The position numbers and the translations under genes were made by a program. Below are positions 1-18,787 of a stretch of DNA of 20,000 bases, in pieces. Where the stretch lies: IMG/VR virus record IMGVR_UViG_3300023196_001660; one strand, written 5' to 3'. A model generated the notes under the pieces. It did no database searches. It saw nothing but the letters and a program-made list of their open reading frames with translations, and had not been told where the DNA came from. The stretch's first letter is position 1; every line of letters starts with the position of its first letter. This DNA is from an uncultured virus (IMG/VR IMGVR_UViG_3300023196_001660) (taxonomy: Duplodnaviria; Heunggongvirae; Uroviricota; Caudoviricetes; Crassvirales).

Positions 1-3000
1 CGTTTGCCCATATTATCAAATAAATCTTCATGCTCTTGTAACCAATCTTCTTTAGTATAATATTGTAAAGTTTCTTTTCGACTAGTAGGGTAATCTAATA
101 AAGTATGTGTACCATCTTCTACTAACCTATCTACTACTTTTTCCCAATGTTTAGATTTCCAATAAAATGCAGGGTCAGTTGTAAAAGTTTGAAAGATATT
201 TACATTAGCTACTAAATAATTTAATACAAAATTAGTAGCATTATGAAATGCAGAAATTTCATCGTTTGAATCTGTATGATATTTTAAAGTTTCTGTAGTA
301 ACATCTACTAATGTATTAGTATTATGGTCTAATATAGTAGCAGTCTCACTTTTAATAAAACCGTATTCTTTCCATGTAGCTAATTTACTATTAACAAGGT
401 TAAACAAAAATATACGTAATTCTTCTTTAATAGCTTCTCTTAAAACACCTTGTTCAGATACATTAGATTTAAGTTTTCTAACACTTCCGTCTTGTTCCCA
501 AATACTAGTTAAACTATTTAAAGAAGGAATAATATTAAACATAGTTCCACCTTCTTCATAAGCTTTAATATCCCATGCTTCAGGAGTATCTTGAATAGAT
601 AATATCCTATTTATATCAGGTGTTACTAAAGCATCATATAGCCATTCTAAACTATTATTTCCCATTTTACCTGTAGAACTAATTCTACCATTCCAATCAT
701 GTCCTATTGTAGTAAGTCCATAAGATACGCTTTTATCAGAAGTAGTAGGATATAATAAATTAAGTATATTATTATTTCCTCTTTTATTTTTACTATAAAA
801 TAAAGCTATTTTAACTTCTTCTATTTCAGCAGGTGACATATGTTCTAATTTCTTACCTTTAGCACCTTCTTTACTTCTACCATCAAAAGTATAATATCCA
901 AAATGTTTTCTAAATTTCTTATTTTCTCTAAATTGCTTAACAAAATGAGAAGTCTTACTAAATGGTTGTTTTGCTAGTTTATCTAGTAAAACAGTATCAG
1001 TATGTAATCTTCTAACTCTATCCGTTAAAAACTTATTTGGACTATAGCCATAATATGTTCTTCCTCTAACATCTTTAAAAGAATTAGTAAAATATACAGG
1101 ATGTTGTTTACCTATTTGTCTTGCAAATTTACCTAAAGCACTATTATTTGCTAAAGGGTTATTATCATCTACATTTAAACCTTTAATCTTATTAAGATTA
1201 TCCATATATAATCCAATAGCACCATCGCTTTTACCAGAAAGCAAATTAAGTAGATTATATCTATTATTATTATATACAACACCTTCATTAATTAGAGTGG
1301 TTATAAGTTTTCTAGGAAATTTAAAACCCATTCTATCTAATAAAGCTGTAGCTTTATCTATTTTAATAGTACCATCTATACCTTTTTGTTTTAATGTGGC
1401 TATAACATCTTTATAATCTCTATTAATAGCTTCTACTTCTCTTTCATTTATAATGTAATTTTCATCAACAACAGATACTAAGTTACTATCATAAATATTA
1501 CTTAACCATTGATTTTGGATAATTCCTACAACATCATTTGAATCACTAGGTACAATAAATAGTCCACCTTTTTTATTCTTAAATATATACATATGATGTG
1601 TATAACTTTTACTCATAGCACTTACAAACTTATTTTTCATAGTTTGTGGAGCATTATTAAGCTCTTTAAGTACATTATGTAAGTAAGGTTTTGTTTCCAC
1701 CCATTCCTCTAATGTAGTAATCATACTATCAAAAGTAGGTATTGTAATATTTCTATTATCTTCTTTGTAATTACTATAAGCAAGTATAGCACTTAATTCA
1801 TTCATTACTTGGTCAAATGGAATTGTAACAGGTAATGCCCAACTCATTTTAGGAATTGCTACACCTTCTTTAGTAATAGATTTTACATCTTCTATGTAAC
1901 TAAATTGATTTTTAATATCTTGACTTAATTGTCTTTTAAAATCTACTCTAAAAGCTCTATCACTTGCATAAATATTATATTCAACTAGTTCTCCTTTATC
2001 ATTAATAAGTTCTTCAAAATCATCATATCCTATTTCATCGTTATCTAATTGAGTTTTAATTTCTTCAAATACTTTTCCATCTTTTACTATACCATGATGT
2101 TGATGTAGGTTATCTAATACTAATTTAACTATTTTCTTATATTCTCTTTTAACATTATTAGCAATTTCTAAATTCTTAGTTGCTCTTTTTCTTTTTTCTT
2201 CAGTTAAGTCAGTTTTTAGTCCTTCTTCTATTTTATTAATACGTTGTCTAATTTCTACATTAGCAAACTCATCTAGTACTGTTAAAGCATCATCATTACT
2301 TTTGTCTTTATATAAAGCTTTTAATACCTTAGAAGTTAAGTGATTAATTATAATATCTTGTAAATTCATACTTACACCTTTAACAAAAAGACTTTCAGGA
2401 ATAGTACCTTCAAATTCATCTTGTTCTTCTTGTGTAAGTTCTCTAGGATTATAATCATCACCATAATCAGATAAACTAAGAAGTCCTTTTAATTGACGTG
2501 TAGTTAAATCAGATAAAGCTTCTACTTTATTAAAACCATCTTTTTTACCACCACTTATATAAGGTCTTAATTTACCACTTGCATCTACAAAGAAACTATA
2601 TACTTCAGTATAATTTTGTTCAATAGTATAAACATTAAACTGATTTCCATCCCAACCTATAGTAAATAAATCACCTACATCTAAACCACCATACTCTTCT
2701 TGAATTTCTTCGGGTAATACTTCCATAGGAGTATTAATTGCAAATACTTTACCTACTGCATCATTTAAAGAAATTTCTTGTGCAGGATTATAATCAGTAT
2801 CATCATCAACATCTTCAAATATATCAAATTCACCAGTTTCTTCTTCAGCATCTATAACTTCTATAGTACGTATATCAGGAACATCTGTAGTTTCATCAGC
2901 TACTTTAGGTGCAAAGGCAAAAGCTGTACCATATTCAAAATTAGGTTGTACTGTGTATATCTCCTTATCATTATCTAGGGTATAAGAATATAAATCAGTA

Positions 3001-6000
3001 GTTGTATGTTCTTTAACAAACTTATCATAAGGCATTTCAGTTGTAGTAACATCGTTAGCAGTTATAATAGGTAGTTGAAAAGAACTATCAAAAGATTCTT
3101 TTTTAAAGTTTAAGTATGTATTATTATTAAGTACGTTTTCTAGTTTAGCAAGATATCCATCTATAGTAGCTCTTCTTTTACTAGCTCTCTCAGTATCATT
3201 TAATCCTTCTTTCTTTCCTATATTATTTATAATATTTCTATTAATAAATCTTATAGTATCTCCTACATTAGCACCTCTACCAAATTCTAAACTATTACTT
3301 TTAGGGTCACTAGATGCAGTTATTAATCTAATGACAGATACATCTTCTCTTACATTATTTTCAACATAATTACTAAATTTATCAAACATAAAAGAAGCCT
3401 TATCTAATTTAGGACTTAAAAATATAAATTTTTCTAAATATGTTTGTAAACCATTTAAAGTAGTTATATCTATATTAGTTTGTTCTCTTAATTTAATAGC
3501 TCTACTCGCATTAGGATTAGCATTTAAATATAAACGTACTGCTTCTAATATAGATTTAATATATTGAGGATGTTTATTTAATAAATCCCGTCTAACAGGT
3601 ACACCAAATTTAGCATCTTTATTTACATCCATTACAGCATACATCATTCCATTATATACTGTATCATTTTGGGTTTCTATTGTGTTACTTTCTCCTGTAA
3701 ACATAGCATCATCTTTTCCAATAGCCATTGTAACATTTGGAAGATTTTTTAATACTGTATCATATACAGCATTAACATCACGCATAAAATGCCCATTAGT
3801 CCTATTCTTAATAGTAGTGGTTACTCCATTAGGAGACTCTATAATAGCTTTTCTTATTACACGAAGATTTTTTTGTTGTCTATCTACATCTTTAAAGTTA
3901 GCAATAGTATTTTCACTTATCCATTCAGGTACATGAAGATAATGTCCTTTAAGTATTTCCCCGTTAAAAAGAACACCAATCGGTGCAGTTTCTACAGGAT
4001 TATTTTTAGTAGTAACTCCATTACTTTCTACACTACCATCTGCATACGATATAGAACCATCATCATGAACAACTTTAGGAAGTACTACTAAAGTAATTGC
4101 ATCTCCTTTATTAAATCTATCATAATCTAATGCTATATGAGAAGCATTATCATTAAGTTCTTTATCTAAGTCTGTTTTAGAAGTTACAAAATCTAATACA
4201 TTAAATCTTTCAGTAGTTTGTACCGTAACTAATTCAACATATTTTTTATCTAAATGAGCAAGATTAATATCTCCTCTTTTAATTTTTACATCACCATTAA
4301 TTGCACTATCTCCTTTATATACAACAAAACCTTGTTGTTCTATACTTTCTCGTACAGTTTTATCTTCTTTTTGGCTAAAATTTATATCACTCATAGAGTA
4401 AATTTCATTGAAAGCCTTAGTTGCATCAATGCTTACTCTATTTGAGATAATACTTCTTTTAGTAGCATCGTCAAAAAATATGTCCTCATAAGTTAAATTA
4501 GTAGGTTGTCCTACTTTGGTAAGATTATAAAGAGCTTTTACTTCATCAAATATTCTAATAAATTTAGCCTTACCTACAGCCTTTTGTATAAATTCAGCAA
4601 CAGTAGGAAAATCTGTAATATCTAAACCAGCATCTTTCATAGAGTTTAGACCTATTTGTACTAATCTCTTACGCTTAATTAAAGCCTCTTCTTCTTCACT
4701 AAGTCCTCCCTCATCTTCTTCAGCAGGATTTAAATCTTCAAATGCATTTTTTATGTCATCTTCTGCTTTTTGAGTAGCTTGGTCATTAGTTTCTTCAGTA
4801 GCCTGTTCTTGTTTTTGTTGAACTTTAAGATGTCTTATAGCATTTTGATATTGTACTAACATACCTGCATTACTTGGACTATCAGGTAAAGCTTTAGTTG
4901 CTTCAATACTTGCTTCAAATCCTTTTATTTTATTTTCTACGGTATTAGCACTATTAATAAATGCAGTAGCCTGTTCTTGTTGTTGCTTATCAGCAAAATT
5001 AAATGCAAAGCCTACAGTATCTTCTATAGTTTCTACTTCTTCTACTTCTGCTACTTCTTCTTCTGTTTCAGCTTCTTCTACTTCTTCAGCAATCGTATCT
5101 TCTTCAAACTTTTTAGCAGTTTGTTTAGCTTTAGTAGCTTTTTTAGTTTGTTTAGCTTGTACTCTAGCTTCAGCTTGTTCTTCTTTTCTACGTTTCTTTT
5201 GTTCTTTTATTACATTACTAATTCTATCTTGTTCTTCATCTGAAGTTAGTTTAGTATGTCGTTCAGCAAGACGTTTAATATTATTAACTACATTAGTTAC
5301 TTTATCTTTAGTATCTTTATATTCTTTTAAACTTTGTAAGTTATTAACAGATGCTTTTTTAGTTGCACCATACTTATTCCAATTATTAAAAGAAATTCCA
5401 CCAGTTTCACTAAAAGTAATTACATCTTCTTTAATGCCTAAATCAGCTAAATCCTGTATTACTTCATCACGTTCAGTTTGTAGTGTACGTTCTAATTGAG
5501 CTTTAGTATCTCTTAATCCTAAATTTTTAGCTCTATTATCATATACTTCATTGAAGTTTAAATATGTGTTAGCTTTAAGATATTCAGTTTCTAAATTTTC
5601 TATACGTTTAATAGCTTTATCGGAATCTTGCTTATATGTTTTCTTATCTAAACCTCTTTGTTCGGCAACATCAGGGTCTAATTCTTTAATACCTTTAAAG
5701 ACATTTACATACTGTTCAGTAGTACCATTAACGAAAGAATCATAAGCTTGAACACTTACTAACCTATCGCTTAACTCTTGTACTCGGGCAAAATCTCCTT
5801 TATTTCCAGCATCTTCTAATTCTTTATATAGATTAAAAGTTTCTTCGGCTTTAAAATAAGCGTCTGTAACGTCACTTATTTTTGAAGCATTATCTAAAGT
5901 ACTAATCTTGTCTAAACTCTCTTGTTGCTTGGTAAAACGGTCAAATTGCTCGTCATTTCGGCTAAATCTGTTACCTTGATTATCTCTTTTATTCCTAATA

Positions 6001-7124
6001 TTTCGACCTGCATTAGTAAGAGCAGTTTGACCTGCACCACCAACAAATCCTAAAAGAGCACTTTCAGCACCTTCTCTAGTAGCGATATCCTTAATAGCTT
6101 TATCAAACGTATAATTATCACTTAAAGCTTGTTCTTCGGCTACTAAGTTAATAGTTTCTTCAGCAGATTCTTGAAGTCCCTCAATACCAGCTATTTTAGC
6201 ACTTCTTTTAAGACTAGGAGCTTTTCTTAATTGTCTAGTTAAAGCAGGTGCTCTAAGAAAGGCAAAAGAACTTGTAAGATTAAGTAATATATTACTTCTA
6301 TTAAAATTAACTACAGATGCAGCTTTTTGAGAAGCTAATAATTTAGCTTCTGTATCTATTTGTTCATCAGATAGTCCTTTATCTTCTTGTTTTAATTTTT
6401 TAATAGTTTCACCATATACTTGTTCATATACATTAGCAGCTATGCCAACACCTTCAGCTTGATTAAGAGCTAAAGCAGTAGAAAGTCCTGAAGCAAGTCC
6501 CATACCTTTTTTAGCTTTATCTGTAGTAGATGCTCCACGTCCTATAGCTTTTAACCATTCTAAAGCTTTTCCACCTTTAGTTAAGAGTTTTAAACTTGCT
6601 CCACCTGTAAGATAACCTAAACCAACAAAAGCAGTAGCACTTTCAACTAAAGAACTACCACTTTGCATCCACCATGCATAATCTCCTACATCAAGAGCTC
6701 TATCAGGATTTTCTCGATATGTAGGTAAAGCTTTATCTAAACTTTCTTTTTGTCCTTGAGCCCAAGTACTTAACCAGTTACCTACTTCGTCATCAGAGTT
6801 AGCATAATCTTCAAAATCAAGTACATTTCCTACTTGACTCATAAATTCTAATGCAGTTTTAGGAATTAATTTAGTTAATGTTCTACCTGTTTGTTCCCAA
6901 TTACTTTGATTAAGTGCTCTACTTCTATCGTAATCAGATGTAAAAGCAAATCCCGAAGCACCCTTAGCTTCAGGATTAATATAACTTTGATAATCTTCTA
7001 TATTAAGAAACTTAGTACTATCATCCGTTTTAAACCCTTTAGAAGTCATACCATTGAGATAGTTATTAGTCTTGGCTTTTTGTTCTTCCTGATTGCCTAT
7101 CAGTTTAAGCATGTCTGGTCGCAT
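1..7124 (-). CDS. Giant virion protein (>2374 aa, 3' end beyond the window): ejection/membrane module fused to the N-terminal part of a crAss-like virion RNA polymerase
   Basis: ATG at 7124-7122 lies 1 nt after the upstream TAA. Manual translation MRPDMLKLIGNQEEQKAK... stays open in one frame to the window edge (...FQTFTTDPAFYWKSKHW...EDLFDNMGK). The ORF track lists no minus-strand ORF here, consistent with no stop in the window. N-terminal motifs RALNQSNWE, EGLQESAEETIN and ESALLGFVGGAG recall crAss-like large cargo proteins. Distal motifs NSFKDVRGRTYYGYS (~1040-1087), YPTTSDKS (729-752) and NIFQTFTTDPAFYWK (156-200) recall crAss-like RNAP proteins. The ORF is well supported; the product is inferred. 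Confidence 0.85.
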   Translation of the reverse strand, partial: MRPDMLKLIGNQEEQKAKTNNYLNGMTSKGFKTDDSTKFLNIEDYQSYINPEAKGASGFAFTSDYDRSRALNQSNWEQTGRTLTKLIPKTALEFMSQVGNVLDFEDYANSDDEVGNWLSTWAQGQKESLDKALPTYRENPDRALDVGDYAWWMQSGSSLVESATAFVGLGYLTGGASLKLLTKGGKALEWLKAIGRGASTTDKAKKGMGLASGLSTALALNQAEGVGIAANVYEQVYGETIKKLKQEDKGLSDEQIDTEAKLLASQKAASVVNFNRSNILLNLTSSFAFLRAPALTRQLRKAPSLKRSAKIAGIEGLQESAEETINLVAEEQALSDNYTFDKAIKDIATREGAESALLGFVGGAGQTALTNAGRNIRNKRDNQGNRFSRNDEQFDRFTKQQESLDKISTLDNASKISDVTDAYFKAEETFNLYKELEDAGNKGDFARVQELSDRLVSVQAYDSFVNGTTEQYVNVFKGIKELDPDVAEQRGLDKKTYKQDSDKAIKRIENLETEYLKANTYLNFNEVYDNRAKNLGLRDTKAQLERTLQTERDEVIQDLADLGIKEDVITFSETGGISFNNWNKYGATKKASVNNLQSLKEYKDTKDKVTNVVNNIKRLAERHTKLTSDEEQDRISNVIKEQKKRRKEEQAEARVQAKQTKKATKAKQTAKKFEEDTIAEEVEEAETEEEVAEVEEVETIEDTVGFAFNFADKQQQEQATAFINSANTVENKIKGFEASIEATKALPDSPSNAGMLVQYQNAIRHLKVQQKQEQATEETNDQATQKAEDDIKNAFEDLNPAEEDEGGLSEEEEALIKRKRLVQIGLNSMKDAGLDITDFPTVAEFIQKAVGKAKFIRIFDEVKALYNLTKVGQPTNLTYEDIFFDDATKRSIISNRVSIDATKAFNEIYSMSDINFSQKEDKTVRESIEQQGFVVYKGDSAINGDVKIKRGDINLAHLDKKYVELVTVQTTERFNVLDFVTSKTDLDKELNDNASHIALDYDRFNKGDAITLVVLPKVVHDDGSISYADGSVESNGVTTKNNPVETAPIGVLFNGEILKGHYLHVPEWISENTIANFKDVDRQQKNLRVIRKAIIESPNGVTTTIKNRTNGHFMRDVNAVYDTVLKNLPNVTMAIGKDDAMFTGESNTIETQNDTVYNGMMYAVMDVNKDAKFGVPVRRDLLNKHPQYIKSILEAVRLYLNANPNASRAIKLREQTNIDITTLNGLQTYLEKFIFLSPKLDKASFMFDKFSNYVENNVREDVSVIRLITASSDPKSNSLEFGRGANVGDTIRFINRNIINNIGKKEGLNDTERASKRRATIDGYLAKLENVLNNNTYLNFKKESFDSSFQLPIITANDVTTTEMPYDKFVKEHTTTDLYSYTLDNDKEIYTVQPNFEYGTAFAFAPKVADETTDVPDIRTIEVIDAEEETGEFDIFEDVDDDTDYNPAQEISLNDAVGKVFAINTPMEVLPEEIQEEYGGLDVGDLFTIGWDGNQFNVYTIEQNYTEVYSFFVDASGKLRPYISGGKKDGFNKVEALSDLTTRQLKGLLSLSDYGDDYNPRELTQEEQDEFEGTIPESLFVKGVSMNLQDIIINHLTSKVLKALYKDKSNDDALTVLDEFANVEIRQRINKIEEGLKTDLTEEKRKRATKNLEIANNVKREYKKIVKLVLDNLHQHHGIVKDGKVFEEIKTQLDNDEIGYDDFEELINDKGELVEYNIYASDRAFRVDFKRQLSQDIKNQFSYIEDVKSITKEGVAIPKMSWALPVTIPFDQVMNELSAILAYSNYKEDNRNITIPTFDSMITTLEEWVETKPYLHNVLKELNNAPQTMKNKFVSAMSKSYTHHMYIFKNKKGGLFIVPSDSNDVVGIIQNQWLSNIYDSNLVSVVDENYIINEREVEAINRDYKDVIATLKQKGIDGTIKIDKATALLDRMGFKFPRKLITTLINEGVVYNNNRYNLLNLLSGKSDGAIGLYMDNLNKIKGLNVDDNNPLANNSALGKFARQIGKQHPVYFTNSFKDVRGRTYYGYSPNKFLTDRVRRLHTDTVLLDKLAKQPFSKTSHFVKQFRENKKFRKHFGYYTFDGRSKEGAKGKKLEHMSPAEIEEVKIALFYSKNKRGNNNILNLLYPTTSDKSVSYGLTTIGHDWNGRISSTGKMGNNSLEWLYDALVTPDINRILSIQDTPEAWDIKAYEEGGTMFNIIPSLNSLTSIWEQDGSVRKLKSNVSEQGVLREAIKEELRIFLFNLVNSKLATWKEYGFIKSETATILDHNTNTLVDVTTETLKYHTDSNDEISAFHNATNFVLNYLVANVNIFQTFTTDPAFYWKSKHWEKVVDRLVEDGTHTLLDYPTSRKETLQYYTKEDWLQEHEDLFDNMGK
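2445..2796. repeat. Perfect 13-bp direct repeat AGGATTATAATCA at 2445-2457 and 2784-2796, in frame, encoding DYNP twice
   Basis: Read directly. The copies are 339 bp (113 codons) apart, in the protein contexts DDDTDYNPAQE and DYGDDYNPREL. Confidence 0.85.
4796..4981. repeat. Perfect 18-bp direct repeat CAGTAGCCTGTTCTTGTT at 4796-4813 and 4964-4981, in frame, encoding QEQAT twice
   Basis: Read directly. The copies are 168 bp (56 codons) apart. Confidence 0.85.
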
Positions 7125-7125
7125 C

Positions 7126-9975
7126 TTATATTATAAATTTAATATGTACATGGAGATTATTTCCTTCTCCATGTAATATGGTTTTTTCTATCCCTTTTTT
7201 AGTTTTTTCTCTATCACTTAAAGCGTGTATTTTTTTTGCTTCTACAGAAGCTTGACTATTATCATTTGCTCTAATATCTATTGAACGTGCTCCATGATTA
7301 GTTTTATGTGTACTATCTACAGCACTTCCTTCTACATTAGTTGTAGGATTTCTACTAATATCTGTTGCAAGTATGTTTGGATAAGCTTTAAATAGGTCTA
7401 CAACATCATCATAAATTACTTCATTTATTTTAGTACTTTCAAAATTATTATTAGCAAGTCTAATCTTTTCATCATTAGCTATGTCTTTAAGAGGAATATC
7501 TTCTATTGGCTTCCCTATATTAGCATCTTGCATAGAAAGAGTCATATCTGCAAATTGAGTTTTTAATGCAGTTACAGTATCTCCTCCTAACATCTTAAGA
7601 TTGCCATTTCTAATTTTTTGTACAGTTTCGTTACTTCTCATTTCATTTTCAGAAAGTCTAACAACATTACCTTTATTATCAAATCCTAAAAATATTGCAT
7701 TATCTCCTGAACCTTCTGTTATATAAAAGCTTTGACCAGTTGGAGAATTATTAGAATAGGACTTAACATTTCTAGTTAAATTCTCATTAATTCTAATAGG
7801 TGTATCAGCGTTTCCAATATTATGTAAATTCTTTAAATCTATATCTCTACTATATTTAGTAGAATTATAAAGACTAAGATTTGTTCTATCTAAAATATCT
7901 CTATCTGCTTCAGATAATGTACCTTGTTTAGCTTTATTAACTAATCTTTCTCTATATTTAACTAGATTTTCTTTAAAACGCTTTTCATAATTAGGGTTAT
8001 CTAAAAAAACAGGCATATTAACTCTTTCAGTTATTTCTCGTGTACCTTGTCTATCTTTAACTATGTCTACTTGGACAGTTAATGCAGGTCTATATTCTCC
8101 TGTTGAAATATCAGGTCTATAATCTAATGTAGGAGATACTTTAGAAGTTTCCCATTTAATATCTCCTTTCTTTTCACTTTCGCTACCTAATCCGTATGCT
8201 TCTTCTATTTGAGTTTTAAGGTCTACTCCTCCATGTACGGACTTCATTCCCATATAAAATGTAGAATTATCACTATACATATCTTCAACCATTTGCCAAT
8301 TACCATATAAAGGATGAGCAATTTGAGCTTTTAAAGGCATTTTAGAAAATAATAAAGTATTATATTGAGTAACATAATCTTTATCATTTTTATCTAATTG
8401 TTTTTCAAAATAATTAGTAGCATGTCTTATTCTACCTTTAGCTGTTGCTACTTTTTTATCTGTATATTCTTTATAGTTATCTGAAAAAGCTACACTAATA
8501 TCACCTTTGTCTTTTTGATTATTAAACTCTTCAATAGAGTATACATCAGTAAGACTTTCTAAAACTTCTTCATCAGTTAATGTACCATTCATTTCAGCAT
8601 ATACTAGTTTCCTTAATTCTCCTTTAGGAATATCTACCATTTTACTTCCAATAGCTTTATCAATTCCTTCATATTCTTCAAACATCTTATTCATATCTAC
8701 ATTATCAAATATAAGAGCTTGTTGTTCTTCTATATCATTTATAGTAAGTTGTTGTCGTTGTATCTTATCTAATGTAATTGCTTTAGCATTAGCATCAGCA
8801 GACCCTTTAAGATTTATTAAATCATTTTTAAGTTTTGCTAGATTATCTTTACTTTCTTCTAATACTTTAGCAGTCTTTTTAACATCATCACTTGAAATAT
8901 TTTGAACATTATCATATATATTTAATATTTCATATTCTTGTGTTTCAAGAGGTTTATTTTTAAGTCCGTATTCTTGTTGCCAATCTTTTAAATATTTAGT
9001 TTCTTCTTTAACAAAACTTTCTTTAACTACAGCAGCTTCAACAGCTTCATCCATAATTTGTTCTTTACGTACTATACTAAATACTTCTTCATTTGTTAAA
9101 TTCTTTTCTTTAATAATGTTTTCTAGTTCACTTGTACTTGGTAATCTATTATCAGTAATACCTAATAAAGAAGCTATTTCACTATTAGTTCTACCTTTTA
9201 AAACTTCTCTTACTTTTTCAGTTGTTAATTCTCCTATTGCATCTAATTCTAAAAATACATCTTCATTAAACTGAGATTGTATTAAACCATTACTTCTTAC
9301 ATGAGCTTTAGCAGCTGCTCTTATATCTTCTTCTGTAACTTCTTCTCTAGTACCTGCCATTAAGTACCCTTTACCATTTGGGTCACGTACAAGAAAACCA
9401 CCATTATAACTAAACTTATTACTTTTAAAACCATTCATAGCAATAAGAACTTCTTTAGATACGTCAATTTGAGGTTGAGCAAGTCTGCCTTCATACGTAC
9501 CAGTATACCCACCAGTTACATCACTTTTAGTTACGCCTTTATAATGTTTATCAGAGTATTGCATAAGTTGTCCCATTCTTTCAGAACTCATTTCCCCTTT
9601 ATCTACCTTTTCTTGTAACCCTTCCATATAGTCAGTCCTAACTTTAGAATTAGTTTGAACACGTAATAACCCATATTTATTAGTTAAATCATTAGCTAAT
9701 CTTTTAGTATCTACAATTTTATTTTCAAAATCACCTTCTTCACTAAATTGTGCAAAAGTTTCTTGATACTTATTATTTGCTCTATCGACTACATGTTTAT
9801 CTTTATCTATAAAACTTACTTGGTTTAAAGCAGTTTCTGTAGCATTTAAACTATCTATTACATAATTATAGTCATCTGCTTTATCTTTATACAATGCCTT
9901 AAGGTCGTCCACTGGACGACCTATAGGTTTAAGGGTTTTTGTATTATATGATAAGTCACTTAGTATTTGTCCCAT
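7126..9975 (-). CDS. 949-aa virion cargo/ejection protein, largely helical, with a C-terminal peptidase M15-like (Hedgehog/DD-peptidase fold) domain
   Basis: Long ORF between the cargo gene and the giant gene. Coiled-coil stretch KVLEESKDNLAKLKNDLINLK...IQRQQLTINDIEEQQ. The C-terminus ATDISRNP...STHKTNHGARSIDIR...NNLHVHIKF fits the S-x-H...D...H-x-H Zn-ligand pattern. Confidence 0.8.
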   Translation of the reverse strand: MGQILSDLSYNTKTLKPIGRPVDDLKALYKDKADDYNYVIDSLNATETALNQVSFIDKDKHVVDRANNKYQETFAQFSEEGDFENKIVDTKRLANDLTNKYGLLRVQTNSKVRTDYMEGLQEKVDKGEMSSERMGQLMQYSDKHYKGVTKSDVTGGYTGTYEGRLAQPQIDVSKEVLIAMNGFKSNKFSYNGGFLVRDPNGKGYLMAGTREEVTEEDIRAAAKAHVRSNGLIQSQFNEDVFLELDAIGELTTEKVREVLKGRTNSEIASLLGITDNRLPSTSELENIIKEKNLTNEEVFSIVRKEQIMDEAVEAAVVKESFVKEETKYLKDWQQEYGLKNKPLETQEYEILNIYDNVQNISSDDVKKTAKVLEESKDNLAKLKNDLINLKGSADANAKAITLDKIQRQQLTINDIEEQQALIFDNVDMNKMFEEYEGIDKAIGSKMVDIPKGELRKLVYAEMNGTLTDEEVLESLTDVYSIEEFNNQKDKGDISVAFSDNYKEYTDKKVATAKGRIRHATNYFEKQLDKNDKDYVTQYNTLLFSKMPLKAQIAHPLYGNWQMVEDMYSDNSTFYMGMKSVHGGVDLKTQIEEAYGLGSESEKKGDIKWETSKVSPTLDYRPDISTGEYRPALTVQVDIVKDRQGTREITERVNMPVFLDNPNYEKRFKENLVKYRERLVNKAKQGTLSEADRDILDRTNLSLYNSTKYSRDIDLKNLHNIGNADTPIRINENLTRNVKSYSNNSPTGQSFYITEGSGDNAIFLGFDNKGNVVRLSENEMRSNETVQKIRNGNLKMLGGDTVTALKTQFADMTLSMQDANIGKPIEDIPLKDIANDEKIRLANNNFESTKINEVIYDDVVDLFKAYPNILATDISRNPTTNVEGSAVDSTHKTNHGARSIDIRANDNSQASVEAKKIHALSDREKTKKGIEKTILHGEGNNLHVHIKFII
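7129..7420 (-). other. Peptidase M15-like Zn-dependent peptidoglycan hydrolase domain within the 949-aa CDS
   Basis: His codon at 7306-7308 (STH), Asp codon at 7276-7278 (SIDIR), HVH at 7144-7152, and an upstream Arg in DISRNP. Confidence 0.72.
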
Positions 9976-9984
9976 TGTAGTGTC

Positions 9985-11433
9985 TTAATTAATATTAGGA
10001 ATTGCTAAAGTTTTAGTAGTACCTGCTACAATAGCATCAAACTTTTTTAACTCTTTAGGATTATTGATATATCTTTGTCTTTGTTGTCTAGCATATTCAG
10101 GGTCTTGTTGTAGTTTTTTTCTCTCAGTACTACTAAGTAAATCTGCTCTAAGAGCTGTACCACCAACAGTAGTTTGTCTTGCAATTTCTAATCGCTCATC
10201 ATCATATTTAGTTTGTGCGTCAAAATTTCTTTTATCTATAAAATCTCCAGCAAGATTAGAAGCATTATCAGATATTCTACTTTGTATATCATTACTTCTT
10301 GCAAAAGCTTTATCTTGATATTGGTTAACAATTCCTAAGTTTTGTCTTGAAATATTTTGAGCATTTTGTACATTTTGATTATGTAGTCCTGCTTCAACAT
10401 TTTGTTTATTAGCCATTATCTTTGCTTTTTCTTCAGCACCCTTTAAACGAACAGATGTGATTTCATTTCTAGCAGTATTGCTATTAGAACTACTTTGTTT
10501 TATATTTCTAGAAGCACTATCTACTGCACGAGTAACAGCATTTACTTGAGGAGTTACATTAACTTTTGTTTTTAATGGTACTATTCTTTGTGTTACAGGT
10601 TTAGGTACTTTAGGAGAAGTTGCTGTTAAAATAGCATTCATTACATTATCTAAATAAGGAGCATATTTACCAAATTTAGATTCAGGTTTTGCAAGAGTAG
10701 TATCATTATTACCAAAATCTCCTCTACTTCCTAATCCTGTTCTACGTTCATCAATAAAATCACCAAGGTCAGCTTTACCTACAACAGTAGGTTCTGTTTT
10801 ATTAGCTTCTTGATGTTGAAATAAAGCATCTTCTTTAGCATCTAACAAAGCTAATTTTCTTTTACCTGTACTACGACCTATTCTATCTAATGTACCCATT
10901 TTCTTTTCTATTTTCCCTTTTTCTTTAGCAAGTTTTTCAGAATGTTCAGCATATGTTTTGCCATCTTTAAAAATAGTTTGGTCACTATATACCTTATTTC
11001 CGTCTTTAATAGTTTCATCACCTTCTATATTTAAAAAAGGTTTACCACTCTTATTTAATAAGTCCATACCACCTTTAGCATGTTTTGGACCTTTAGCTAT
11101 TTCTGTATCAGAAGAAATAGGTACAAGTTTACCTTTACTAGTAGCATAGCTTTGAGTATTACCGCCTTTAGCATATATTTTTCCACCTTTAGCTCTATAA
11201 TAATCTACAACTCCTTCACCTTCTGCTTTAAAATCTTCTAAACGCAAAGCATCTGTTTGTTGTGCGTTAGCTTCAGTTACAGCTCTAGCTTCACGTTCAG
11301 CTTCTTCCATTGCGTTCTTCTTTTTAGCATTAGCTGCTAAACCTGATACAAAAGATAGTCCTGCAATAGCAGCTCCAACAAATGCTTTAGGTGTTTTCTT
11401 TTTAGATTTTATTTGTTTTCTTTTAGTTCTCAT
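9985..11433 (-). CDS. 482-aa cargo/pilot (DNA ejection) protein, crAss cargo protein 1-like
   Basis: Directly downstream of the muzzle gene. It has a basic N-terminus, a hydrophobic Gly/Ala helix AFVGAAIAGLSFVSGLAA, repeated AKGG motifs, a GPKHAKGG...IEGDETI...KVYSD block typical of crAss-like cargo proteins, and an N/Q-rich helical C-terminal half. Confidence 0.72.
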   Translation of the reverse strand: MRTKRKQIKSKKKTPKAFVGAAIAGLSFVSGLAANAKKKNAMEEAEREARAVTEANAQQTDALRLEDFKAEGEGVVDYYRAKGGKIYAKGGNTQSYATSKGKLVPISSDTEIAKGPKHAKGGMDLLNKSGKPFLNIEGDETIKDGNKVYSDQTIFKDGKTYAEHSEKLAKEKGKIEKKMGTLDRIGRSTGKRKLALLDAKEDALFQHQEANKTEPTVVGKADLGDFIDERRTGLGSRGDFGNNDTTLAKPESKFGKYAPYLDNVMNAILTATSPKVPKPVTQRIVPLKTKVNVTPQVNAVTRAVDSASRNIKQSSSNSNTARNEITSVRLKGAEEKAKIMANKQNVEAGLHNQNVQNAQNISRQNLGIVNQYQDKAFARSNDIQSRISDNASNLAGDFIDKRNFDAQTKYDDERLEIARQTTVGGTALRADLLSSTERKKLQQDPEYARQQRQRYINNPKELKKFDAIVAGTTKTLAIPNIN

Positions 11434-11450: not shown

Positions 11451-14400
11451 TTATCTATTACTTATTACACTTTGAGTGTTAACTTGATGTATATGTACTG
11501 TGTCATTATCTATATTATCTATGATTAAACGCACCGTTATAAATTTACCAATAAAATTCGACTTCTCAAACCATAAAGTTAAATTATTTATATTAGCAGT
11601 TATAATATCTCCATTAGCATCTAATATAGGATTATTTGGATTTATTACTAAATCTCTAAATTCATTAAAATTCCAATCACCTTCTGCATTACGAGTTAAT
11701 TCAAAATGATTATCTTTTAAATTAATAATACCACTACATTGATTATTATTATAAATCATAATATGTGTAATAGTCTTATATAATTCATTACCACCAGCAT
11801 TATTTATAACATCTGTTATCCATGTTACATTTTGAAGTAGCCTACTTAATTGGGATTGTTCATTAAAAATTAAATCTACATAAGTATCATACTTAACTCC
11901 ATAATATAAACCTTTAGTAAGTTTATCATTATGTTCATAAACAGAAGCTCTGTCAACTCCTAGTAATTTATTAGTAATACTAAATAAACCACTACTTGTA
12001 TAAAATATTAAATTAGGATGATAATCATGTTCACAAATCCAACTTAAATTTTGAGTTTCTAAATTAAAACTAAGAGTTTTACTAACATTTTCAAACTCAT
12101 TGGTATCACTAAATTCTAACTTATTTCCACTACGGGTATAAAACTCTCCATCAAAAGTAGTTCCTGTAGGACTTCCAATGAAGTTATACATTTTCTTTAT
12201 AAATAATAATCTATTATATTCTTTATCATATCCTACTAAATGTCCTACACTTATAAAGGGATTATCTATTCTTCTCTTTTCTCCAACATCGTCTAAATCA
12301 TAATAGTCTAATCCATTATCCCAATTATCCCAAAACCATCTTTTAACTCCTTTAGCAGAAATTTCTTTTACATCATTTTGTATTATAAATATTTGACCAT
12401 TAACTTGATTAACTGTTATATACATTCCTTTAACAATTATACAAGCAAATTTAGAAGTAGAACCTATATAACCTTTATCATCACTTAATAATTCTTCAGG
12501 GGGTCTATCAAATAGTTCACTAGTTCCAAGATAAGCATCTACATTTTCTGTTTTAAGTTTATCTTTAACAAGTGCAGCAAATAGTGTAAACCTATGCTGA
12601 ATAAATAAAGCACGTTCTTTACCTCTAACAGCTAAAATTTCTCCTTTATCATTAGGCATTTCATAATAATCACTAGCTAAATAAGTGCCTATTGCTTCAA
12701 TAGTTAAACTTTCATTAGGTAATTTTAACCCTCTATAAACTCTAAAAGGAAACTTATTTATAAAATCACTTTCTAAATCAAAAGTAAAAATAGTAATTAC
12801 ATTTTGTATAGAACTAAGAGTTTCTTTACCTCTTATATCAAAATCATAATCAAGTAAATCAAGTACACCTGCAGATTGGTCTGTTCTATCATCAGGAGGA
12901 GTATTATAAAGTTGAGCACCATTTACAGGAGAATTAAGACCTCTAACTTGTATAGGTAAACTTACGTGCCATCTTCTAACAAGAACATAGTCATATACTC
13001 TATGTAATCCTCTTGCATTTATATTAATAGCACTTTCAGTAAAATTATCTCCTCCTTTAAAAACAGTATTATCTGCAATAGTGGAAATTCTTCCTACTAT
13101 ATTTAAATCATCGCTTTTAAAACCTGTATATACGTTTAATTTAAAAGCATATGCAGTAATATTAAGAACAAGTCTACAAGCATACATTAAATCATTACTC
13201 CAAGGAGTACCACCTGGAAATGTATCTATTATATTTTGTCCTAAATAATCAGCCTTTAAATTAAGATTAACACCTTCTTCATGATGGTCAGTATTTTCTA
13301 TAGCAGAATTATGAGGTCTATATATTAAACCACTTTCACATTTACTATACCTATCTACATCAGGAATTACAAAACCTTCATTAAAAAGCCCACCATCACC
13401 ATTTTCAATTGCAACATAAGTACTAAGTACTGTATCTTCTGTATAGTCAATAAGTCTAAACTTATAATTAGTTTGTATAAATAAAGGTTGTAAACTAGGA
13501 CGAAATTTAAAAAGTTCATTACCTAGTAATCTAACTTTATCAAAACGTATTTGAGGGTCATCAACACCTTGATTTGTAGTACCAAAATTATAATATTCAA
13601 ATCCACTATCTGTATCTCCTAAGCCATCACCACCTGCATCAGCAAGGTCATCATGGTCATGTCGTCTAACTGCTACCCAATTTCCAGCAAGAAAAGAATT
13701 ATTAGAAGTTCTACTTACATGAGAAATTCGATAACCCTGTATTTGAGAAAGAATTGGAGCAGGAATAATAGTTGCAATATTAGTAATCTTAATACCATAT
13801 TTCCTATTAACCCAATTAGTATTAATACTATGTCCATAAGGATTACCTGAAGGAGTACTTGTACTAGCACCACTAGCCATTCCCCATCTATCATCAGAAG
13901 CTTCTGTATAAGCAATACCTCCAGTAGTTAAACTAGAATCATACATACTTTTAATACTTGGAAATCTATGATATCTAATAGGAGTATTCCGTAAATCACT
14001 TCCTCCTAAAGCATTATTATCGTAATCAAGTGTACTATCATATTCATCATCATTTGGGTACGTTTCTGCGTTTTCCCAATAACCCATTTTATTCCCACTT
14101 TCATCAGCAGGAACAGGATTAGGACTGCCACCTGTAGGTTGAGTCATACTTGCGGCAATTCCATTATTAAATACATGAAATTGTTTAAAACCAGTTTCTA
14201 AATCAGTCCAAGTTAAATCATATTGTGTTTTTTGTCCAGCAGTTAAAACATCTGTTTCAGTACCTTCAGCAACACGACCCGGAATATGAAATGCTTCAGT
14301 ATAACTACCATTTAGAAGTTGTAATTCAATATATAAAGCATATACTTCATCAGGCATAAAAGAAGCATCTTGTCCTTTATAATTAGTATTAGTTTCCTCA

Positions 14401-15401
14401 ACATATTCTACAGGAACTACATTAAGCATATTAGCATATTTCTGAAATTCAAATTGAGGAGCTGTTTCTACATTTGCTAAAATAGATTGATTATCATATT
14501 TAGTTATAGTATTAGCTTTTTCAAAATAAGCTTGTTCAAGTAAAATAGCTTCAGCAGATACTTCAGCAAAATTACTTAGAGAAGTGACATCAATAGTAAA
14601 AGTAGTTCCAGTATAATTAAGAATTTCACTTTCATACCCTATAAGAGCAGAAGCTACTTCACCTTCTTCTTCAGTTCTAACAGTTAGACCTATTCTTAAT
14701 CTACTAAATGAAAGGTCTAAATCAGTAAAATTTAATGTAAATCCTCTTTGTAAAGTAGGATTAACGTCTATACCTACATATGCAATATCACTTGAAGAAA
14801 AATATCCTGCATTACTATCATCATTATATACATAAGAAAATGTAATATAAACTGCAAATCCTCCAAACTCTCCAAAATCAAGATAATCTATACTAAGAGA
14901 ACCTTGATGTAAATTAGGATTTATATTAATAATAAAAATATCAGTAGGAGTAACAAGAGTGCCATCACCATTTACAGCAAACGGTAAAGTAGTAGTATTT
15001 AATACTCTTGGAGGATTAGAATTAGGTTTAACTCCGTCACACCAACTTACTATTAAATCTCCTTTATAATTGTATATAAAAATACCTTCTATTGGACAAT
15101 TTAATTGAAAGTTTAATTGGTTATCTTTTATAACCGTAGTATAAACAGGAGCGTCATTATTAGTATTTACTACTCCTATTTCATCTGTACCCGTATCATT
15201 CTTATGAAAATACACAACATGAGCATTAGTAGCTATAAACCCAATAACAGTACCCTTTACAAGATACTGAAATTTAAGACCATCTTCATTACTTATACTT
15301 TTATGTCCTTTAGTTAATAAGAAATTCTTTCCCCATTGCCAAGTCCCACTAGGATTATTAATAGGTAGTGTATCTCTTATTATGCTTTTAAAGTCTTTCA
15401 T
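11451..15401 (-). CDS. 1316-aa tail muzzle / tail stabilisation protein (crAss muzzle, P22 gp10-like role)
   Basis: Size, position and beta-rich composition fit. Motifs NPPRVLN, FQKYAN, DEVYALYIELQLLNGSYTEAFHIPGR, MGYWENAETYP, PIRYHRFP, FKGGDNF, YYEMPNDKGEI and WICEHDYHP resemble crAss-like tail stabilisation proteins. Confidence 0.82.
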   Translation of the reverse strand: MKDFKSIIRDTLPINNPSGTWQWGKNFLLTKGHKSISNEDGLKFQYLVKGTVIGFIATNAHVVYFHKNDTGTDEIGVVNTNNDAPVYTTVIKDNQLNFQLNCPIEGIFIYNYKGDLIVSWCDGVKPNSNPPRVLNTTTLPFAVNGDGTLVTPTDIFIININPNLHQGSLSIDYLDFGEFGGFAVYITFSYVYNDDSNAGYFSSSDIAYVGIDVNPTLQRGFTLNFTDLDLSFSRLRIGLTVRTEEEGEVASALIGYESEILNYTGTTFTIDVTSLSNFAEVSAEAILLEQAYFEKANTITKYDNQSILANVETAPQFEFQKYANMLNVVPVEYVEETNTNYKGQDASFMPDEVYALYIELQLLNGSYTEAFHIPGRVAEGTETDVLTAGQKTQYDLTWTDLETGFKQFHVFNNGIAASMTQPTGGSPNPVPADESGNKMGYWENAETYPNDDEYDSTLDYDNNALGGSDLRNTPIRYHRFPSIKSMYDSSLTTGGIAYTEASDDRWGMASGASTSTPSGNPYGHSINTNWVNRKYGIKITNIATIIPAPILSQIQGYRISHVSRTSNNSFLAGNWVAVRRHDHDDLADAGGDGLGDTDSGFEYYNFGTTNQGVDDPQIRFDKVRLLGNELFKFRPSLQPLFIQTNYKFRLIDYTEDTVLSTYVAIENGDGGLFNEGFVIPDVDRYSKCESGLIYRPHNSAIENTDHHEEGVNLNLKADYLGQNIIDTFPGGTPWSNDLMYACRLVLNITAYAFKLNVYTGFKSDDLNIVGRISTIADNTVFKGGDNFTESAININARGLHRVYDYVLVRRWHVSLPIQVRGLNSPVNGAQLYNTPPDDRTDQSAGVLDLLDYDFDIRGKETLSSIQNVITIFTFDLESDFINKFPFRVYRGLKLPNESLTIEAIGTYLASDYYEMPNDKGEILAVRGKERALFIQHRFTLFAALVKDKLKTENVDAYLGTSELFDRPPEELLSDDKGYIGSTSKFACIIVKGMYITVNQVNGQIFIIQNDVKEISAKGVKRWFWDNWDNGLDYYDLDDVGEKRRIDNPFISVGHLVGYDKEYNRLLFIKKMYNFIGSPTGTTFDGEFYTRSGNKLEFSDTNEFENVSKTLSFNLETQNLSWICEHDYHPNLIFYTSSGLFSITNKLLGVDRASVYEHNDKLTKGLYYGVKYDTYVDLIFNEQSQLSRLLQNVTWITDVINNAGGNELYKTITHIMIYNNNQCSGIINLKDNHFELTRNAEGDWNFNEFRDLVINPNNPILDANGDIITANINNLTLWFEKSNFIGKFITVRLIIDNIDNDTVHIHQVNTQSVISNR

Positions 15402-15402
15402 A

Positions 15403-15903
15403 TTAAAACTTATTATTTATTTGTTCTGCATTATCACTTGCCTTTCTACTATAAGCAAGAGCTTCTTGTTTTTCATCTTCTGTCCAAACAGTACTTCCAC
15501 CACCAGTAGCAATAGTTAAACCATCAACAGGGCTTTGTAATACTGTAATATCTCCTCCAACTCCTGTGGCTTTCATAACTTGACCACTTACACCACCAAC
15601 AAATTTAGCACCAAAAATCCTAGTATAGCCACTACCTCCCCAAAACTGTATTTGCCATCTTGCATTAACTCTTAAAATAATTTGTGAAAATAGTAAAGGG
15701 TCATCAGGGTCAGGTATTTTACCGTCTGGATATAAAATCTCAGAATCTTGATTTACATCAGCTTGATTAATATACGGATGCAAACTTCCTACAGGATTTA
15801 CTCCTGCATCTTGTACAAAATCATGAAGTGTCTGTCCATCTATTTCTGTAGTCGGAGAAGTAATCAAAATTAATTCATTTACATAGTCTAGTACTATAGG
15901 CAT
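15403..15903 (-). CDS. 166-aa hypothetical phage structural protein (fibre-cassette associated)
   Basis: ORF track. The gene is coupled to both neighbours with 2-nt and 1-nt gaps. It has a beta-rich body, a GGGS linker and a short C-terminal helix. Confidence 0.75.
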   Translation of the reverse strand: MPIVLDYVNELILITSPTTEIDGQTLHDFVQDAGVNPVGSLHPYINQADVNQDSEILYPDGKIPDPDDPLLFSQIILRVNARWQIQFWGGSGYTRIFGAKFVGGVSGQVMKATGVGGDITVLQSPVDGLTIATGGGSTVWTEDEKQEALAYSRKASDNAEQINNKF

Positions 15904-15905
15904 GA

Positions 15906-16256
15906 TTATCTTTTAGAATTTCTTAAATCTATATAATATTCGTCTAATTGTTTAGTTAGTGTATCTACAATATGAGTATTTTGTATTCTTAATTCTTTAG
16001 CTATTTTTACTCTATTAGAGAGCTGTGTAATATTAACAGTCATTTGAGTAATGGCTATATCCATAGCTTCATCATTATAGTTACGTTTACCTTTTTGCTT
16101 TTTATAAAATCTTTTACGATTAATTTCTGTACCTACTGCACTTTCAAAAGCTAATATATCCATATTGTTTCTATTTAGGAGAGATTTATGTTTATCTAAA
16201 TCTCTCCTAATAATAACATCTATACCTTCTATAAAAACAGTTCCTCTAGCTTCCAT
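15906..16256 (-). CDS. About 116-aa basic helical/coiled-coil hypothetical protein
   Basis: The ORF track gives 15906-16307. The internal ATG at 16256-16254 (MEARGTVFIEG...) overlaps the upstream TAG by only 11 nt (ATGGAAGCTAG) and is the more plausible start. Confidence 0.68.
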   Translation of the reverse strand: MEARGTVFIEGIDVIIRRDLDKHKSLLNRNNMDILAFESAVGTEINRKRFYKKQKGKRNYNDEAMDIAITQMTVNITQLSNRVKIAKELRIQNTHIVDTLTKQLDEYYIDLRNSKR

Positions 16257-18744: not shown

Positions 18745-18760
18745 AGTTGTAAACGTTTTA

Positions 18761-18781
18761 AATTATTAATTATTAATTATT
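18761..18781. repeat. Tandem heptamer (AATTATT)x3 in the largest intergenic gap
   Basis: Read directly within the 18745-18787 spacer upstream of the 832-aa gene. Confidence 0.75.
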
Positions 18782-18787
18782 GTTATA

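Follow-up and report, generated by a model that had tools for sequence, protein, structure and literature searches.

We examined a 20,000-nucleotide (nt) window, the final 20 kb of a 77,272-bp contig of an uncultured virus (IMG/VR record IMGVR_UViG_3300023196_001660), which carries a module of three closely spaced genes following the gene for the muzzle protein, the gate of the tail tip. The muzzle gene (positions 11451..15401, minus strand; 1316 amino acids) is the upstream anchor of the module and is separated by 17 nt from the gene of a 482-amino acid homologue of cargo protein 1 (9985..11433, minus strand), recognised by family profile matches and hereafter called C1. After a gap of 9 nt follows C2, a protein of 949 amino acids in the position of cargo protein 2 (7126..9975, minus strand), recognised by profile matches and by fold matches in BFVD. 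One nt after C2 lies the gene of a giant RNA polymerase (RNAP) polyprotein, of which the first 2374 residues are inside the window (1..7124, minus strand; open reading frame (ORF) 3-7124, open at the window edge). The original prediction, made from the sequence of the window, had described three close genes of rising size with gaps of 9 and 1 nt after the muzzle gene. These coordinates were confirmed, and on the contig the giant ORF extends over genome positions 48110-64396 and encodes 5,428 amino acids.

The phage is a crassvirus, because its capsid, muzzle, terminase and RNAP matches are all of the crassvirus type. The major capsid protein (genome 9143-10648) matched the Pfam family Crass_capsid with an E value of 3.3e-65. 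The muzzle protein matched crAss_MUZ (E 4.1e-9, 35.6 bits against a cut-off of 27) as well as crAss_MUZ_C, and a BLASTP comparison with crAss001 gp44 gave an E value of 8e-10. The large terminase subunit is about 32% identical to crassvirus terminases. It matched 151 records, of which 25 were listed, all of them from crAss-type or unnamed gut phages at 29-32% identity. The RNAP, of the phi14:2 type with the catalytic motif DFDID, gave 145 matches among phage records, the best being Fpv phages of Flavobacterium with 26% identity over 94% of 1500 residues, and the nearest cultured matches are phages infecting Flavobacterium and Cellulophaga. Searches of C1, C2 and the part of the giant protein in the window against Pfam and PHROGs gave nothing significant, and sequence searches against solved structures with these three proteins returned noise only.

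C1 forms a family with 18 relatives of 445-710 amino acids. The profile of this family matched p-crAssphage gp47 (E 1.5e-23) and cr127_1 gp46 (E 1.6e-35); the match to crAss001 gp45 was weak (E 0.0075), yet the alignment was colinear. The N-terminal hydrophobic helix that had been noticed in the first protein is located at residues 17-35 (11329..11385, minus strand). It is Gly/Ala-rich and the sole hydrophobic stretch of C1, with a mean Kyte-Doolittle (KD) hydropathy of 1.61 over 19 residues; values of at least 1.2 are reached in 16 of the 19 family members and values of at least 1.5 in nine. The helix aligned with residues 142-160 of crAss001 gp45 and thereby falls on the predicted transmembrane helix of gp45, given as residues 136-158 (PMC10172136). 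A predicted portal-binding domain, defined by fold and sequence register, comprises residues 104-217 (10783..11124, minus strand). The AlphaFold2 model of C1 was searched against 48,161 chains. Among the 50 matches listed, chain 7qog_M (crAss001 gp45, residues 426-552) ranked 48th and was the only one confined to residues 104-217, the others being generic helices; its Z score of 6.7 (root mean square deviation (rmsd) 3.5, 102 of 126 residues) is within the range that the tool calls common, so that the assignment rests on the agreeing sequence register. Sequence alignments and fold match place residues 104-217 in the same register on the portal-bound segment of gp45. Because the two agree, the 482-amino acid protein is a cargo protein 1 homologue, a remote one outside the Pfam family crAss_CARG1. 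The crAss_CARG1 model is narrow and misses p-crAssphage gp47 and Fpv3 gp30 too. Residues 318-421 (10171..10482, minus strand) are predicted by the AlphaFold2 model to form one continuous helix of about 100 residues, which had generic coiled-coil matches only and is a candidate channel-wall element.

With Foldseek the C1 model had no match in the PDB at an E value of 0.001 or better, and a T7 match (8e4g_a; Z 6.9, rmsd 9.3) was set aside as a generic helix match. The record label 'putative endolysin/lysozyme' on cr127_1 gp46 was not confirmed by Pfam and was not counted. In p-crAssphage a small gene between the muzzle and C1 genes, gp48 (L024:27835-28629), aligned with the part of the C1 profile that covers the N-terminal helix (E 1.5e-7) and is possibly a split or duplicated C1 N-terminus.

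For C2, 85 matches were found in a 50%-identity library, and a profile was made of 74 proteins of at least 600 amino acids, C2 included. At the level of the N-terminal 250 residues this profile matched phi14:2 gp079 (95%, E 3e-8), cr127_1 gp47 (95%), Fpv3 gp31 (94%) and p-crAssphage gp46 (91%). Weaker matches were obtained with cr55_1 gp069 (44%, E 2e-4) and phi17:2 gp040 (11%, E 0.003), and shuffled targets gave E values of 0.07 or worse in all 25 control tests. These profile comparisons place C2 in a family of proteins in the cargo 2 position that shares homology with phi14:2 gp079, which is recorded as a component of the virion from mass spectrometry (MS), and that lies outside the Pfam family crAss_CARGO2. 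Genes of crAss_CARGO2 occupy the same place, between C1 and the RNAP block, in two related loci (L015 and L016). The model of C2 (mean predicted local distance difference test (pLDDT) score 89) had 16 BFVD matches at an E value of 0.001 or better, the named ones mostly crAss-type proteins; Foldseek against the PDB gave none at that level. A tblastn search of 50,697 phage records gave no match to C2, and single-sequence scans of viral contigs gave none either. The gene cr55_1 gp069 (NC_055869.1, L028:22926-24719), which occupies the C2 position in a phage of the Suoliviridae, is C2-like. A gp46 homologue has been reported as missing in Suoliviridae (PMC10172136), and the profile match suggests a wider distribution of the protein than has been described.

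The second protein had been described as helical with a terminal M15-like peptidase. The predicted model bears out the terminal domain, in fold and in motif; it is helical only to about residue 530 and rich in beta strands between residues 600 and 800. The C-terminal domain, residues 822-949 (7129..7512, minus strand), is predicted from its fold and invariant residues to be an M15-type zinc peptidase that cuts peptidoglycan. Nine of the 50 fold matches listed for the C2 model fall on residues 821-949, and eight of these nine are titled Hedgehog or zinc D-Ala-D-Ala or LD-carboxypeptidases. Hedgehog scored best (Z 9.0, rmsd 3.5, 110 residues), followed by VanYB (7.5), LdcB (7.4), VanXY (6.6 and 6.5) and the Zn DD-peptidase 1LBU (6.2), over 84-114 residues. 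In an alignment of 23 C2 members, which were picked for carrying the M15 domain, six of the eight invariant columns lie in that domain (T871, R875, S888, H890, D900 and H942) and H944 is nearly invariant, at a mean column identity of 35%. The M15 motif consists of a His, an Asp and an HxH pair as zinc and catalytic residues with an upstream Arg, to which R875, H890, D900, H942 and H944 correspond in C2.

The M15 domain is an accessory of C2, because about two thirds of the C2 relatives are without it. A profile of the domain finds it in 25 of the 74 C2 proteins, 23 of them by construction, and Pfam Peptidase_M15_3 matched seven of the 60 relatives scanned, one of these above the curated cut-off. 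An SLT lytic transglycosylase domain takes the place of M15 in two of the 74 relatives (P0024 and P0037) and in locus L005. The remaining relatives end earlier or in other domains, and the M15 domain is absent from most of the distant ones. Two further types of C-terminal domain were noticed on C2 relatives, one on P0050 and one shared by P0063, P0083 and L008:1-2325; one of the two carries an R-x-D-x-H-N-N-P motif. They had no match in Pfam or PHROGs and are possibly other wall enzymes. A relative of C1 (P0014) has a peptidoglycan-binding domain, with no enzyme, at its C-terminal end. In phi17:2 the gene just upstream of the C1-like gene, gp042 (KC821609.1, L026:10151-12370), encodes a phage-tail-lysozyme domain (PF18013, E 9e-32). 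Taken together, the M15 or SLT domain on C2, the peptidoglycan-binding domain on the C1 relative and the tail lysozyme of phi17:2 indicate at the sequence level that wall enzymes recur in the cargo module in several forms. Fold, conserved ligands and domain swapping support the prediction that the M15 domain of C2 acts as a wall peptidase, and the exchange of M15 and SLT argues that C2 works in the periplasm.

C2 itself has no hydrophobic segment, and a hydropathy of at least 1.5 is found in one of its 74 relatives, which fits a periplasmic subunit. The conserved N-terminal domain, residues 20-335 (8971..9918, minus strand), is predicted to self-associate. Prediction of three copies gave a score of 0.76 against 0.00 for the best of three controls. 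In the calibration of the tool, 20 of 30 structurally solved pairs and one of 23 structurally solved single chains attained the mark used for self-association. These counts hold only roughly here, as the three-copy job was outside the two-copy calibration and used an alignment made by the authors. The runs had a contact agreement of at least 76% and a pLDDT of at least 82. One copy contributes residues 40-67, 121-135, 169-213 and 307-330 to the interface and its neighbour residues 88-104, 154-238 and 327-333, largely the other face. Two largely different faces in contact are what a ring would need. K318, invariant in two alignments (A2 and A6), is among the lowest-error contacts. Oligomer modelling, which the original prediction had proposed, thus supports self-association of C2, while a closed ring is beyond the reach of such prediction; ring closure and stoichiometry are accordingly presented here as presumed. 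Tunnel proteins are known from ejection systems, under names such as Sf6 gp12. Fold matches to T7 gp15, N4 gp51 and DEV gp72 were absent among those listed for the whole 949-residue model, a search in which such a fold is not excluded for a protein of more than 400 residues. We consider C2 likely to be a periplasmic tunnel subunit.

The order of the genes, to which the original prediction had attached weight, is conserved in the relatives examined. The order muzzle, C1, C2 and giant N-terminus was found in three of the four loci fetched with C1 and C2 queries (L005, L006 and L023), and the fourth (L022) ends after C2. Annotation and matches give the same order for seven named phages, and the module contains one additional gene in p-crAssphage, phi14:2 and phi17:2; the muzzle genes of phi17:2 and cr127_1 were assigned by position only. 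The C2 homologues of the named phages all lie directly before the RNAP block.

The giant protein is, judged from its sequence matches, a fusion of three RNAP-associated proteins that are separate in other crassviruses. Its N-terminus matched p-crAssphage gp45 (BLASTP E 4.5e-17), and an N-terminal profile matched cr127_1 gp48 (E 3e-22) and phi14:2 gp078 (E 9e-4); a match to crAss001 gp47 was not detected, and gp47 is equated by position only. Residues 2021-2926 matched the RNAP of phi14:2, gp077 (gp66), with a BLASTP E value of 3e-22; the part of this region in the window, residues 2021-2374, lies at 3..1064 (minus strand). The phi14:2 RNAP structure 6VR4 was the only significant match among solved structures (E 4.6e-17). 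The motif GFRIP at residue 2826 and the catalytic DFDID at residue 2867 are both outside the window. The C-terminal approximately 1,000 residues match crAss001 gp49 (E 1.5e-15), phi14:2 gp076 (6e-22), Fpv3 gp33 and cr55_1 gp071, with E values ranging from 1e-15 to 1e-38. Two runs of N are present in the assembly (genome 21878-21977 and 51216-51225). The second is inside the giant ORF (residues 4391-4394), so that the evidence for an unbroken fusion to the C-terminal domain comes there from the scaffold and from relatives in which the parts are fused (L007, L009 and L012). The three genes that had been called tripartite are the fused state of a five-protein cargo set, as present in crAss001 and phi14:2.

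Between the RNAP and the C-terminal domain the giant protein carries a zincin-like motif, EEIIH, at residue 3757. An EExxH zincin goes with an M15-bearing C2 in four of four readable loci (this genome, L007, L009 and L012), and an HExxH zincin goes with a C2 without M15 in four of four (L008, L011, L014 and Fpv3). crAss001 gp49 has the motif EEFAH with no M15 on C2. As the genomes are few and related, this co-occurrence is a lead only. In print the zincin has been suggested to activate the RNAP or to digest peptidoglycan (10.1101/2020.03.07.982082). A domain of the A1S_2505 family (NCBIfam NF049995, E 2.5e-26; phrog_2072) was seen at about residues 3975-4095, after the zincin and before the C-terminal domain. 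The segment had no match in any related locus and looks like a recently added passenger. Searches of the ESM Atlas returned viral clusters without a name, and the labels among their members (LPD22, a minority label with 12% of members, on the N-terminal 500 residues; LPD39 and LPD38, with 28% and 63%, on the C-terminal domain) had low recognition values and serve as leads only.

From these results we consider it probable that the three genes encode homologues of crassvirus virion cargo proteins which are likely ejected through the tail and would build a temporary channel across the envelope, with C2 as a predicted ring tunnel carrying a zinc wall peptidase. In this model residues 104-217 would keep C1 attached to the portal, as computed from homology, with its N-terminus in the tail, an arrangement known from crAss001. 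Once the muzzle opens, C1 would be the first to leave, and its helix 17-35 would enter the outer membrane. Next, C2 would assemble, subunit beside subunit, into a tunnel through the periplasm, in keeping with its predicted self-association, and its M15 domain would cut the stem peptides of peptidoglycan locally; in relatives a lytic transglycosylase, another domain or none would take this place. The giant protein would pass partly unfolded, and its N-terminal Gly/Ala-rich helices, its C-terminal hydrophobic helix or both might tentatively be assigned to the inner membrane. The RNAP domain would then refold and transcribe early genes, as shown for phi14:2 gp66. Homologues of the C1/C2 module were found in virions of phi14:2 and crAss001 by MS, and the crassvirus cargo proteins gp45 and gp46 are expected to form a T7-like transmembrane channel (PMC10172136, Bayfield 2023). 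The reading of the three genes as a T7- or N4-like ejection machine therefore fits the homologies found and the published crassvirus model, while 'tripartite' describes a fused state.

A number of observations speak against this reading. The crassvirus channel is itself an expectation of the published model. The AlphaFold2 model of C1 has a predicted template modelling (pTM) score of 0.34 and a mean pLDDT of 70, its fold match is of a common strength, and crAss_CARG1 (PF25725) does not match C1 at E values up to 0.1. The homology of C2 with crAss001 gp46 is weak (hhalign E 0.013 with a three-member profile, N-terminus to N-terminus, and 0.074 with gp46 alone), and crAss_CARGO2 (PF25712) does not match C2. 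The three-copy prediction does not demonstrate a closed ring. The best fold match of the M15 domain, Hedgehog, is a non-peptidase member of the fold; the copy in the window has a three-residue insertion between H890 and D900, giving H-x9-D where most relatives have H-x6-D; and 49 of the 74 C2 relatives have no M15 match (two of them carry SLT).

Which part of the giant protein would be placed in the inner membrane depends on the helices at its two ends. The third protein had been described as having several Gly/Ala-rich hydrophobic helices followed by an RNAP-like region. The helices are conserved and the RNAP is homologous; the helices are only weakly hydrophobic and the catalytic DFDID is beyond the window. 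They form a conserved helical domain at about residues 65-370 (6015..6932, minus strand), identified from homology and hydropathy, which is a candidate membrane- or tunnel-binding part. The best 19-residue hydropathy of this end is 1.18, while 13 of 16 N-termini examined reach 1.2 (1.22-1.57) and phi14:2 gp078 reaches up to 1.72. The most hydrophobic helix of the whole protein (residues 5301-5319, 1.52) is near the C-terminus, outside the window. Of 14 C-terminal domains, 13 contain a hydrophobic helix (KD 1.23-2.02) that lies 117-148 residues before the C-terminus, and such a helix is also present in phi14:2 gp076, cr55_1 gp071 and cr127_1 gp49. This distribution makes it a possibility to be kept in view, if not a likely one, that the giant protein is anchored in the inner membrane by its C-terminal (gp49/gp65-like) domain rather than by the N-terminal one. 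A single helix in a helical domain may, however, be buried core, and the C-terminal domain is encoded by a gene of its own, separate from the RNAP, in L011, L015-L018, Fpv3, crAss001 and phi14:2. Neither the N-terminal nor the C-terminal helix proves membrane insertion.

The original prediction went further and had a membrane-anchored RNAP pull in the genome. For this the giant protein would have to stay uncleaved and be anchored by its N-terminal helices, so that transcription draws in the DNA, as proposed for N4. The conserved Gly/Ala-rich helices are in its favour. The N-terminal domain and the DFDID core lie in a single ORF here and in nine of 15 loci retrieved with the RNAP core as query (four of the nine are near-identical genomes); in one locus they are split, and the other five could not be scored or appear split. 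The order of N-terminal domain, RNAP, zincin and C-terminal domain parallels that of the N4 virion RNA polymerase (vRNAP) (PMC13434306, PMC5512222), and EEIIH in place of HExxH could mean that cleavage was lost. Against it, different genes encode the N-terminal domain and the RNAP in crAss001, phi14:2, p-crAssphage, cr127_1, L006 and L008, on opposite strands in the case of crAss001, and the N-terminal helices are only marginally hydrophobic. phi14:2 gp66 is a soluble, crystallised enzyme with weak transcription of double-stranded DNA in vitro, and cleavage of fused crassvirus forms is expected by the phi14:2 authors (10.1101/2020.03.07.982082); in N4, too, the pulling of DNA has so far only been proposed (PMC13434306). 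Since the two parts are separate genes in several crassviruses, a covalent membrane tether of the RNAP appears from gene content to be at most optional and not general in the order. We regard this explanation as unlikely, and the claim of the original prediction is not upheld.

It is also rather doubtful that the conduit consists of C1 and its 100-residue helix alone, with C2 as an internal core or chaperone ring that brings the enzyme to the periplasm or cytoplasm and not as the tunnel wall. The C1 helix is long enough to cross much of a periplasm, C2 has no membrane segment, in contrast to N4 gp51, and no solved tunnel protein was among the fold matches listed for C2. The position, size and predicted self-association of C2, on the other hand, are in line with the role of middle ejection protein in T7, N4 and phiM1, and the domains exchanged at its C-terminus are enzymes of the cell wall, which places C2 in the periplasm. 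Improbable, in our view, is a non-catalytic wall- or protein-binding role of the M15-fold domain, for which Hedgehog as best fold match, the lack of a Pfam match for the window's copy and the enzyme-free peptidoglycan-binding domain of P0014 could be cited, since the motif residues listed above are conserved and the domain alternates with the catalytic SLT domain. A broader scenario, to which we likewise give little credence, is that this clade arrived by convergence at the design of N4, using a polymerase that is unrelated. The uncleaved 5,428-residue chain, its zincin switched off (HExxH to EExxH) once M15 took over wall cutting, would dock in the inner membrane under the C2 ring, its transcription would draw the genome in, and the C-termini of the cargo proteins would be exchange slots for host-wall enzymes.

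The preferred reading, a cargo channel with C2 as tunnel subunit, can be compared with known systems. The crAss001 module (gp45 as C1, gp46 as C2, and gp47/gp49/gp50; PMC10172136) is alike in its position after the muzzle gene, the C1 helix and portal-bound domain, C2 as the next gene, a DFDID RNAP, a gp49-like domain and the proposed T7-like channel. It differs in having five genes where there are three here, with the RNAP-associated proteins joined in one 5428-amino acid chain here, and in a C2 of 534 amino acids in place of 949 with M15; the M15 profile finds no such domain in crAss001, C2-gp46 homology is weak and giant-gp47 homology undetected. In phi14:2, gp079 corresponds to C2, gp078 to the giant N-terminus, gp077 to the core and gp076 to the C-terminus, and gp081 carries the C1 domain; all products of gp076-gp081 were found in virions by MS. 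There the parts are split into separate genes with an extra gp080, and gp079 has no M15. Fpv1 and Fpv3 (gp30-gp33), the best cultured RNAP-region match, have the same gene order and a fused protein of 4287 amino acids, but the C-terminal domain is a separate gene, C2 has 732 amino acids without M15 and the zincin keeps HExxH.

The ejectosome of N4 and DEV (gp52, gp51 and gp50 vRNAP; PMC13434306) also has co-linear ejection genes, three in number and rising in size, of which the largest encodes a chain of N-domain, RNAP and C-domain with a zincin-like domain. The N4 RNAP is T7-like, however, whereas the giant protein has a double-psi-barrel DFDID enzyme; N4 ejection proteins carry no wall hydrolase; N4 gp51 has predicted membrane helices and C2 none (PMC13434306); and N4 or DEV fold matches of C1 or C2 were absent among those listed. 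T7 gp14/gp15/gp16 and phiM1 share with this module a wall hydrolase on an ejected protein. In phiM1 the middle ejection protein carries a C-terminal lysozyme-like domain (718-903; PMC11440229), the layout of C2. Their enzymes cleave glycan whereas C2 has a zinc peptidase, they have no virion RNAP, and no homology was detected.

How crassvirus DNA and the giant polymerase are delivered through the envelope of Bacteroidota is a stated open question (PMC13434306). This genome offers a compact three-gene version of the system, in which a 128-residue wall peptidase on C2 swaps with a lytic transglycosylase, the soluble domain of C2 is predicted to self-associate and a natural fusion orders three RNAP-associated proteins from N to C. 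The core idea of a crassvirus cargo channel with RNAP is known in print, the channel from PMC10172136 and the N4 parallel from PMC13434306 (2026), which calls the mapping of two cargo and three RNAP-associated proteins onto N4 parts open. To this the genome usefully adds an exchangeable wall hydrolase carried by C2, the predicted self-assembly of C2 and a wider distribution of this protein. The literature searched, which did not extend to supplements and most subscription papers (including Yutin 2018), yielded no description of a crassvirus cargo 2 with an M15 or SLT domain, of a predicted C2 ring assembly or of a cargo 2 homologue in a Suoliviridae genome. The accessible main text of PMC10172136 does not use the word peptidoglycan.

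Promoter-like sites occurred at chance level (110 against 109.7 expected). A ring-protein gene was not recognised beside the muzzle gene, in contrast to crAss001. Upstream of the muzzle gene, positions 15403-19999 hold four or five ORFs on the minus strand (166, 133, 832 and at least 403 amino acids). They had no significant match in Pfam or PHROGs, are rich in Gly and Thr and are likely parts of tail fibres or adhesins.

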